Assembly (NCBI GenBank): GCA_029856045.1
Contig: JAHQWG010000047.1
Coordinates: 208,178 to 272,177 of the forward strand
Direction: 5' to 3'
DNA: 64,000 nt
DNA from: Promethearchaeia archaeon
GTDB taxonomy: Archaea > Asgardarchaeota > Lokiarchaeia > Sigyniarchaeales > SOKP01
The notes under the pieces are model-generated. The model searched no databases, was not told the origin of the DNA, and worked only from the letters and a program-made list of their open reading frames with translations. Each line of letters starts with the position of its first letter. Positions within the stretch are counted from its first letter, which is position 1. Position numbers and translations under genes: made by a program. Shown in pieces: positions 40,567 to 42,486 of the stretch.

Positions 40567-42231
40567 ATTCAAATTTCTGAAAAAGATATTGAAGACACTC
40601 TAGAAGTAGAAGATCAGATTCAAGTGTTTATCGATCAAATTTTAACGTCAGAAAATAAAGAAAATAAGAAATTCTTAATTTTAGAATTAATAAAATTTAT
40701 CTCCACTGAAGCCAAAAAGATTGCAGAAATGGGAGACTTTTTTGAAGCTGCTGAAATTTTATCATCTACAGCAAATTTATTGGAAGAAATTGATCAAGAT
40801 ATTGCAAAAGAACTCTTAAAGAATGCGATGAAATATTGGGATAAACAAATAGAGACTTGTAAAAAACAAGCTAAATTTCTTGAAATTGCTGAATTATATA
40901 TTAAACAAGCAGATATACATCGTGACATATTTAGGAATACAAAGAAAGAGCAAGAAAATATCCTTTATGCTATCCAATTCCTAAATCATGAAGCCGATGT
41001 TCGTCTTGAATTTAATGAGTTAGAAGCAGTTGCTCGAACATTTCAAAATATAGCGAATTTATACAACCGGATTTCAAATTTTAGGAAAGCAATTAAGTTC
41101 AACAAGATGGCAATTAAGCTTGCTAAGGAGCACGGCTATTATCACATCCTTCAATACACCTATCAGCAATTATTTTCATGTTTTTCTGATTTGGGCGATT
41201 ATAATTCAGCTAAAGAAATTGTATTAGTTGGAATTGAATATTTCGCTTCAGAGGCTTTAAAATATGAGCAAAAGGACATTCTCAACCTAAATTTGTCCGC
41301 ACTTTACCAAATTATAAAAAAATTATATTTTATGCTAAATGATACGGATAACTATGTTTCTTATGCAAAAAAAGAAGCGAGTACATATATAAGCATTGCA
41401 CAATCCTTAGGAAATGATCCTAATGATGCAGAAAAAAAAGGAACTCTATATCGCGGAGCAGCATTATGCTATAATGAAATTCAAAATAATTTAATCGAAT
41501 GTGCCTCCTGTTTTTTCCTAGCTGGAAATTTCTTTCATTCAATCCAAAAGAATAGTGATGCAGCAGAAAATTATAATAATGCAGCGATGGTATTTGGGCA
41601 AATCGGTAATTACCAAAAAGCTTTTGAATTATATGTTAAGGCAGCATTAAATTATCAAAATAACAATGAAGTTCGGAATTGTCTTGAAAATTTCTTGAAT
41701 GCATATGATCTTACTCTTAAAGAGGATATTGAGTTTAATAGAACTGAACTATATAATTATCTTATTCAAGGACTAAATAAATACGCTAAAGAAAAAATAA
41801 AAACAAAAGAATTCTATTCAGCAGCAACGTCTATTTTAGAAAGTCTTAAATTTTACTCAAGTTTCGATAGTGTGCGTTTTAGTCCAGAAATATTTGCTGA
41901 GATGGTTAAGAGGGTTTCGAAAAATTACTATAAAGCAGCAGATTTTAAAACCATTCGACCACGCAATATACGATTTAGTTATTTTTTAGCTGCGCTATCA
42001 CGCCTTTTATTAAAACAAATTGATGAAGCTAAAGAAATTATGAAAGAGGTTAATACGAATGGTAGCCGAGTGGAAAAATATAAAGCAATTGTAAATCAAA
42101 TCATTGAATGGATTAATGAAAATAAACAAATCTTAATATCGGATTTTCCCAAAAATATACAAAAATTTATCAATCGATATGATGAAGTGAAATATATTAT
42201 TTCTTTATTTGAAAATATTTATGATTCATAA
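40567..42231 (+). CDS. Large TPR / alpha-SNAP-like repeat protein (probable ATT start at 40567; GTG 40624 alternative)
   Basis: Repeated A..Y..AA helical hairpins (e.g. AAENYNNAAMVFGQIGNYQKAFELYVKAA); frame open upstream to ATT 40567 preceded by GGGA. Confidence 0.8.
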   Translation: MQISEKDIEDTLEVEDQIQVFIDQILTSENKENKKFLILELIKFISTEAKKIAEMGDFFEAAEILSSTANLLEEIDQDIAKELLKNAMKYWDKQIETCKKQAKFLEIAELYIKQADIHRDIFRNTKKEQENILYAIQFLNHEADVRLEFNELEAVARTFQNIANLYNRISNFRKAIKFNKMAIKLAKEHGYYHILQYTYQQLFSCFSDLGDYNSAKEIVLVGIEYFASEALKYEQKDILNLNLSALYQIIKKLYFMLNDTDNYVSYAKKEASTYISIAQSLGNDPNDAEKKGTLYRGAALCYNEIQNNLIECASCFFLAGNFFHSIQKNSDAAENYNNAAMVFGQIGNYQKAFELYVKAALNYQNNNEVRNCLENFLNAYDLTLKEDIEFNRTELYNYLIQGLNKYAKEKIKTKEFYSAATSILESLKFYSSFDSVRFSPEIFAEMVKRVSKNYYKAADFKTIRPRNIRFSYFLAALSRLLLKQIDEAKEIMKEVNTNGSRVEKYKAIVNQIIEWINENKQILISDFPKNIQKFINRYDEVKYIISLFENIYDS

Positions 42232-42295
42232 TTCTTTTTAATCTTTTTTTGAAAAATTCAAGTTCTTTAAATATAAATTTTAAGAATGGATAGCG

Positions 42296-42313
42296 TGCAA
42301 AAGTAAATTTGCA
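42296..42313. promoter_or_regulatory. Inverted repeat between a TATA-like box and the SD of the small peptide gene
   Basis: TGCAAA-AGTAAA-TTTGCA; TTAAATATAA about 20-30 nt upstream. Confidence 0.45.
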
Positions 42314-42336
42314 TTAACTAACATTAGGGTGATTAT

Positions 42337-42447
42337 TTGAATAAAAAGAGTATAATTGCATTAGCAATCTTATTAGCGGTTGCATACGGAATTAATATGT
42401 CTATGGCAGGAGTGGCTATTCCTGGCTGTGCTGATGGAGTTCCGTAA
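42337..42447 (+). CDS. 36-aa secreted propeptide (signal peptide plus about 12-aa mature peptide)
   Basis: Not in track; AGGGTGA SD at 42326-42332; TTG start; MNKKSIIALAILLAVAYGINMSMA|GVAIPGCADGVP; locally GC-richer, coding-like sequence. Confidence 0.75.
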   Translation: MNKKSIIALAILLAVAYGINMSMAGVAIPGCADGVP

Positions 42448-42467
42448 GTAATTCAAGCTGATAAGTA

Positions 42468-42486
42468 TTTTTTTTTTCCTTTTTTT
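42468..42486 (+). terminator. Oligo-T archaeal terminator after the peptide gene
   Basis: T10-CC-T7 run 20 nt after the stop. Confidence 0.5.

Follow-up and report, generated by a model that had tools for sequence, protein, structure and literature searches.

A conserved small propeptide gene beside a TPR gene in a Lokiarchaeia genome: a candidate peptide signal with a candidate receptor other than its neighbour

Introduction

Do Asgard archaea communicate through secreted peptides, and if they do, which protein reads the signal? The question is raised by a stretch of 64,000 nucleotides from a Promethearchaeia archaeon of the Lokiarchaeia (contig JAHQWG010000047.1), referred to here as the window. 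In it a 36-codon gene (42337-42447, + strand) lies 105 nt behind the stop codon of a co-oriented gene (40567-42231, + strand) coding for a protein with tetratricopeptide repeats (TPRs). An earlier reading, made from the sequence alone, had interpreted the two as a signalling cassette of the RRNPP type, with the TPR protein as a Rap-like receptor of an exported propeptide. Experimental evidence links only one archaeal gene to quorum sensing, and cell-cell communication in archaea is little known (PMC12240190). The present analysis points to a genuine gene that had been assigned the wrong receptor. A protein of about 1,200 residues, here named BIG, is the recurrent neighbour of such peptide genes. 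In our view it is roughly a toss-up whether the small gene codes for an archaeal peptide signal that is read by a separate class of receptor.

Results

A second gene coding for the identical protein exists in the same genome (G000:C8:18418-18525), nowhere near any TPR gene; the two copies differ at 11 nucleotides and at no residue, and no further paralogue was found in this genome. Among eight copies from four species, 20 of 35 codons show synonymous variation and none shows a non-synonymous change. Judged by this pattern, the 36-codon gene is a genuine transcription unit under strict purifying selection. A search of 41 relatives detected the gene in 20 genomes at one to four copies each, and with profile searches the family grew to about 100 genes, spread over about 55 genomes of the Lokiarchaeia that all belong to one order. 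No credible member was seen in the remainder of 400 genomes of the phylum, and no relative in the viral contigs searched. A search of 1.8 billion representatives gave 27 matches, every one recognisable as a member of the family. Pfam and NCBIfam returned only signal-peptide noise and no family above it, Rfam gave no credible match and the Atlas search with the peptide no match; no description of the family was found in the literature searches. The sequence-only reading had allowed that the small frame might be unconserved or be the truncated start of a longer secreted protein. The frame is conserved, and its homologues end at the same position; truncation was rejected on this ground, and two long 'cluster members' proved to be unrelated. 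The gene had also been called unannotated, which is not borne out, since gene finders do call homologues on many contigs.

Family members are 34-40 aa long, with a basic start, a hydrophobic core of 13-15 residues and a Gly/Pro tail of 8-12 residues. The product of the window gene has a basic n-region, a hydrophobic h-region and a Gly/Pro tail that ends in Pro, as do 63 of 69 distinct peptides. This anatomy, together with the hydropathy, would be compatible with a Sec secretion signal. A predicted cut after S-M-A would leave a 12-mer (42409-42444, + strand), and a cut after G-V-A the 9-mer IPGCADGVP (42418-42444, + strand). A small-x-small triplet, a pattern picked by eye, stands ahead of an 8-9-residue tail in 62 of the 69 distinct peptides; because it recurs across subtypes, cleavage may yield the 9-mer and not the 12-mer as the mature product. 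At least five subtypes exist, a single genome can hold up to six variants, and tandem variant copies occur. The window gene belongs to subtype C, the only one with a Cys; other subfamilies mostly have Gly there. Cyclisation through the Cys, which the sequence-only reading had considered, therefore cannot be a general feature, and the family lacks the invariant Cys near the C-terminus that an AgrD-like thiolactone would have. Readings as a lasso peptide, a class III pilin signal or a lipoprotein were tried and rejected, their motifs not being conserved.

Several further observations were made at peptide loci. Three peptide genes are damaged, by an internal stop, by loss of the stop with resulting read-through and by an insertion (L101:3708-3821, L173:6933-7199 and protein P0029). 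S26 signal-peptidase-like genes lie 1-4 kb from peptide genes at two separate conserved loci (L115:7266-8610, L086, L091, L092, L098 and L119; L220, L221, L224 and L232), in one case in the order M28 peptidase, S26, Alba, peptide, so that dedicated processing is possible. In family f4 the peptide genes stand upstream of a GNAT acetyltransferase gene (L106:6160-7463, L107:2952-4110), once with one copy on each side. The peptide and neighbours of L095 (G037:C95), from a family-f2 genome, resemble those of genus g3 of family f1, which could be due to misbinning or transfer.

The TPR gene belongs to the core genes of the order and occurs in one copy. Its start is uncertain (ATT at 40567 or GTG at 40624), giving a product of 535-554 aa, which exceeds the Pfam cut-offs for SNAP (30.4 bits, cut-off 25) and TPR_8 and is modelled as an all-helical, pure solenoid (predicted local distance difference test, pLDDT, 90). 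Residues 264-554 align with Sec17, alpha-SNAP and gamma-SNAP at Z 13.2-14.6 and a root-mean-square deviation (rmsd) of 4.7-6.2, and the Rap/PlcR proteins rank below them (RapI Z 12.2, PlcR 11.4, RapH 11.2; rmsd 7.5-16.6), Z scores of this level being close to what helical repeats give through arrangement alone. The likeness to the SNAPs covers the C-terminal 290 residues, nearly the full length of a SNAP, at 12-14% identity; the N-terminal TPR half of 260 residues is extra. Foldseek returned generic solenoids for the model. The structural check proposed with the sequence-only reading, RRNPP against SNAP, leans towards SNAP, in line with the accompanying caveat that the TPR protein resembles alpha-SNAP-like repeats and that its position may be due to chance. 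No description of an Asgard SNAP was found in the literature searches. A small ubiquitin-fold gene of ThiS/SAMP type (40170-40379, - strand) is divergent from the TPR gene and kept in the genus.

As for the partnership, a TPR receptor would find some support in the co-oriented arrangement, which is kept in four genomes representing four species of the genus, in a peptide copy found 2.4-3.7 kb from the TPR gene of two further genera, and in a weak RapH match of the TPR protein (E 0.001). In those two genera, however, order and strand change, and direct adjacency amounts to one event in one genus. In orthologues outside this genus a HAD hydrolase gene or other genes come next, so that the signal-peptide frame expected downstream of TPR homologues is missing there. 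Of 41 relatives 38 have the TPR gene, in a single copy, and no peptide gene was detected in 19 of these 38; the identity of the TPR gene across the family is 37-42% whether or not a peptide gene was detected, and the TPR gene has not expanded into paralogues despite the up to six peptide variants per genome. One relative (G018) has a TPR-HAD-CdhD-peptide-BIG block, and related orders occur in G006 and G019. This suggests that the adjacency at 40567-42447 is a leftover of a rearranged TPR-HAD-CdhD-peptide-(BIG) site. We judge the TPR gene to be a mere neighbour of the peptide gene and not its partner, and consider the TPR protein as peptide receptor very improbable.

Clustering of the neighbours at 41 peptide loci revealed that BIG directly adjoins the peptide gene in five genera. 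Out of 90 peptide genes 31 lie within 2.5 kb of a BIG gene, 22 of them head-to-head, in seven genera (chance about 0.3% for each). Peptide genes of the window type, found before BIG was known, lie at most 350 nt from BIG in 6 genomes of 5 genera and in four orientations. Divergent peptide subtypes were found by inspecting the flanks of BIG genes, and the widened profile then led to BIG paralogues that had not been inspected before. In a later genome-wide search 5 of 9 new weak peptide matches lay 350 nt or less from a BIG gene. The clades of BIG follow the peptide subtype across genera, and BIG paralogues of one genome accompany different subtypes; in 24 of 27 pairs the nearest BIG relative carries the same peptide subtype (Mantel r 0.32). 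Of 134 other genomes of the family 117 have BIG, which was not found in the remainder of the order; no description of it was found in the literature searches. The BIG gene of this genome lies at G000:C36:88516-92055, on a contig other than that of the peptide gene, which makes both peptide copies here orphans. On sequence grounds the window gene is best read as an orphan member of a family of putative secreted signal propeptides in the Lokiarchaeia.

Another possibility is that the peptide is a secreted or membrane-active effector (an antimicrobial, a type-I-toxin-like product, a metal or redox chelator or a surface subunit) and BIG only its transcriptional regulator. Dispersed identical copies and strong promoters, which suggest dosage, fit such a role, as do the Cys and the acidic residue of subtype C. 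The tails, however, are rich in Gly and have no cationic character, neither an immunity nor an antisense partner was seen, and the diversification of subtypes runs parallel to the BIG clades, so that we regard an effector as quite unlikely.

The structure of BIG was modelled with a pLDDT of 82 and a predicted template modelling score (pTM) of 0.82. Residues 7-186 match zincins of the M1 aminopeptidase/thermolysin kind (Z about 7), and the HExxH zinc motif of the metallopeptidases is replaced by R-E-x-Y in about 40 of 44 rows. In BIG proteins beside subtype-A peptides the R-E is changed to Q-S (L149, L170, L171, L137, L177); these form one clade and count as one event. Four helix-plus-ferredoxin modules of Lrp-like type come after the N-domain, residues 191-750 matching the Lrp-like NirDL (4czc) at Z 14.5. 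The Atlas search gave a lead of 0.78 to an HTH_AsnC cluster, Foldseek nothing under E 0.001, and no TPR match was obtained, the model consisting of a zincin and alpha/beta modules. In another Asgard family a protein of 540 residues combines the N-domain of BIG with a recognisable winged helix (HTH_24) behind it. From the model it appears plausible that a peptidase fold without metal ligands serves as a peptide sensor, and we infer that BIG may bind DNA. No shared operator was found in the regions upstream of the peptide genes. Co-folding of BIG residues 1-960 with the full 38-aa propeptide of an adjacent pair (G009) scored 0.01, which speaks neither for nor against an interaction. Genomes of family f4 in which BIG was not detected possess double-Lrp proteins of 380-410 aa.

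Genes for ThiF, a B12 radical SAM enzyme, GNAT and a major facilitator superfamily (MFS) transporter recur as patchy cargo beside BIG. In this genome a GNAT-ThiF fusion (L124:10139-11734, - strand, corresponding to G000:C36:92135-93733) stands ahead of BIG; it is split differently in one sister species and is GNAT-only in another. A peptide gene lies beside none of the 29 MFS-adjacent BIG genes, mostly of one clade, as against 24 of the 53 others. The BIG clade without adjacent peptide, head-to-head with the transporter, comprises L133, L135, L138, L143-L159, L162, L236 and L237. The cargo raises the possibility that the peptide is the precursor of a ribosomally synthesised and post-translationally modified peptide (RiPP), matured by ThiF adenylyltransferase, radical SAM enzyme and GNAT to a cyclic or modified product, with BIG regulating the cluster. 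Dedicated ThiF and radical SAM clades (16 and 23 genomes), often adjoining BIG or the peptide gene, and the GNAT-ThiF fusion speak for it, and so does the making of thiolactones and macrocycles by ThiF enzymes in streptococcal RiPPs (PMC12596934). The precursor, however, does not go together with ThiF, which is missing from most peptide-bearing genomes (16 against about 55), including two species with an identical peptide. The genus of this archaeon lacks the radical SAM enzyme, several ThiF or radical SAM loci lack a detected peptide, and the Cys is not family-wide. A RiPP thus appears improbable, to about the same degree as an effector.

At the window locus itself, a T-rich stretch (42232-42252, + strand) straight after the TPR stop is a likely terminator between the genes and suggests two separate transcription units. 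It is followed by an archaeal TATA box, TTTAAATA (42266-42273, + strand), a 6-bp inverted repeat where transcription is predicted to begin (42296-42313, no strand), a Shine-Dalgarno site (42326-42332, + strand), the TTG start at 42337 and an oligo-T terminator or T-tract (42468-42486, + strand). The locus is thus built as the sequence-only reading had described it, from the helical TPR frame and the 105-nt gap to the T-tract. In the family a TATA-like box precedes 79 of 83 genes, mostly by about 45-100 nt, and a T-tract follows 81 of 83, both being loose patterns in AT-rich DNA; GGTGA-like Shine-Dalgarno sites precede many homologues. The genome holds no second perfect copy of the palindrome, against 0.8 expected by chance. 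The palindrome is kept in four species of the genus; it is absent from the second genomic copy and from every other peptide gene. It was therefore rejected as a family-wide operator.

Discussion

The mechanism we propose follows a Rgg/SHP-like logic with parts that are not those of RRNPP systems. The peptide gene would be transcribed from its own promoter to its own terminator and kept by strong selection, as seen in its sequence. Sec export and cleavage by signal peptidase would then free the last 9-12 residues, as the anatomy suggests, and the peptide could be re-imported, possibly through an oligopeptide ABC transporter; two oligopeptide-binding proteins (PF00496) and two signal peptidases are present in this genome. 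Inside the cell it may bind the zincin-fold N-domain of BIG, which lacks the zinc histidines, or the Lrp effector pockets, and the four Lrp-like modules could in turn regulate the nearby GNAT-ThiF, radical SAM or MFS cargo and perhaps the peptide gene. For us this proposal, an exported propeptide re-imported and sensed by BIG, hangs in even balance. The idea of communication by a secreted propeptide stands, and gains from a genuine, conserved multi-copy gene, a tail of signal size and a product that is never the beginning of a longer protein; the TPR receptor is given up.

Several points weigh against sensing by BIG. Eleven peptide genes in five genomes of two other families have no detectable BIG, the BIG profile finding none in families f2 and f4. 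No adjacent peptide exists at 53 of 82 BIG genes examined, and neither copy of this genome adjoins BIG. The peptide set was partly seeded from BIG-adjacent DNA. Co-inheritance of linked genes alone yields congruent trees, so that the congruence of BIG and peptide shows a jointly inherited unit and not binding. The BIG of this genus is long-branched, its zincin domain sharing only 49% identity between two species whose peptides are identical. BIG itself has no Pfam helix-turn-helix match, indeed no Pfam match, and the NirDL fold is also used by enzymes. The leader is conserved as strongly as the tail, which is unusual for a discarded signal peptide.

Alternatively, the peptide may stay uncleaved as a microprotein with a single membrane helix, its short tail serving to tether or regulate BIG, or some other partner, at the membrane. 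This would suit a leader that does not vary within the genus and is kept across genera. The entire peptide is mildly hydrophobic, and the linkage to BIG would be accounted for without import. On the other hand the basic N-terminus would put the tail outside the cell, away from a cytoplasmic BIG, a small-x-small site stands ahead of the tail, and tandem variant copies look like pheromone arrays. We consider a membrane microprotein unlikely, and less so than a RiPP or an effector.

Comparison with known systems places the sensing by BIG outside the RRNPP group. That group is defined by a propeptide of 10-100 aa, its secretion by Sec, a receptor of 250-500 aa, TPRs in the receptor, and neighbouring receptor and propeptide genes (PMC10075063). 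The propeptide, at 36 aa here, is of fitting length. Both the TPR protein and BIG exceed the receptor length, and BIG has no TPRs. Taken locally, the pair in the window agrees with the group in peptide size, TPRs and adjacency, but not in receptor length or in conserved pairing, the TPR gene being adjacent in this genus only. With length and pairing lacking in one pair and TPRs in the other, the system is not a member of RRNPP. The precursor resembles those of Rap-Phr, PlcR-PapR, NprR-NprX and AimR-AimP in its 35-40 residues, its n/h/c regions and its short C-terminal tail, with a faint Phr_nterm resemblance (E 0.012); it differs in that the adjacent TPR gene is SNAP-like and not conserved as a partner, and the recurrent partner has no TPR. 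By analogy the BIG-peptide pair may work like Rgg/SHP of streptococci, including the Rgg-controlled RaS-RiPP operons. In both a small peptide gene diverges from that of a putative transcription factor, a genome can hold several paralogous pairs, both partners have orphans, the radical SAM, ThiF and transporter cargo is variable, and the C-terminal signal has about 8 residues. Here, however, a 1,200-aa partner of zincin/Lrp fold replaces the HTH-TPR protein, the precursor has a putative Sec-type signal, the host is an Asgard archaeon and there is no sequence homology. The ThiF-dependent RiPPs microcin C, Grc and enterofaecin (PMC12596934) share ThiF, GNAT, radical SAM and MFS genes near the module, whereas here the enzymes occur patchily and often without linkage to the peptide, and the precursor has a putative hydrophobic export signal. 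BIG is like the Lrp/AsnC (FFRP) regulators and the siroheme decarboxylase NirDL (4czc) in its apparent winged-helix and ferredoxin-like modules. It is unlike them in that a zincin domain without metal ligands precedes four such modules fused in a single chain, that Pfam gives no match and that the proposed ligand is a peptide.

The case also shows how little the adjacency of a TPR gene and a small frame can be relied on in archaea. Separately, the TPR gene deserves interest as a conserved single-copy SNAP-like protein throughout the Lokiarchaeia relatives. In its widest form our reading would be that Lokiarchaeia own a peptide system of exported 8-12-residue Gly/Pro peptides, with at least five dialects and a reader built of a pseudo-peptidase and a quadruple Lrp, the window gene being an orphan pheromone of it. 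We hold this tentatively, at somewhat less than an even chance, jointly with the proposal that the quadruple-Lrp receptors form a class unrelated to RRNPP, Agr and two-component sensors. With the peptide genetically encoded and a candidate receptor named, the question becomes testable in Asgard archaea without culturing. If the reading is true, peptide signalling would gain a new receptor architecture, and a way to influence the growth of slow Asgard enrichments might open up.
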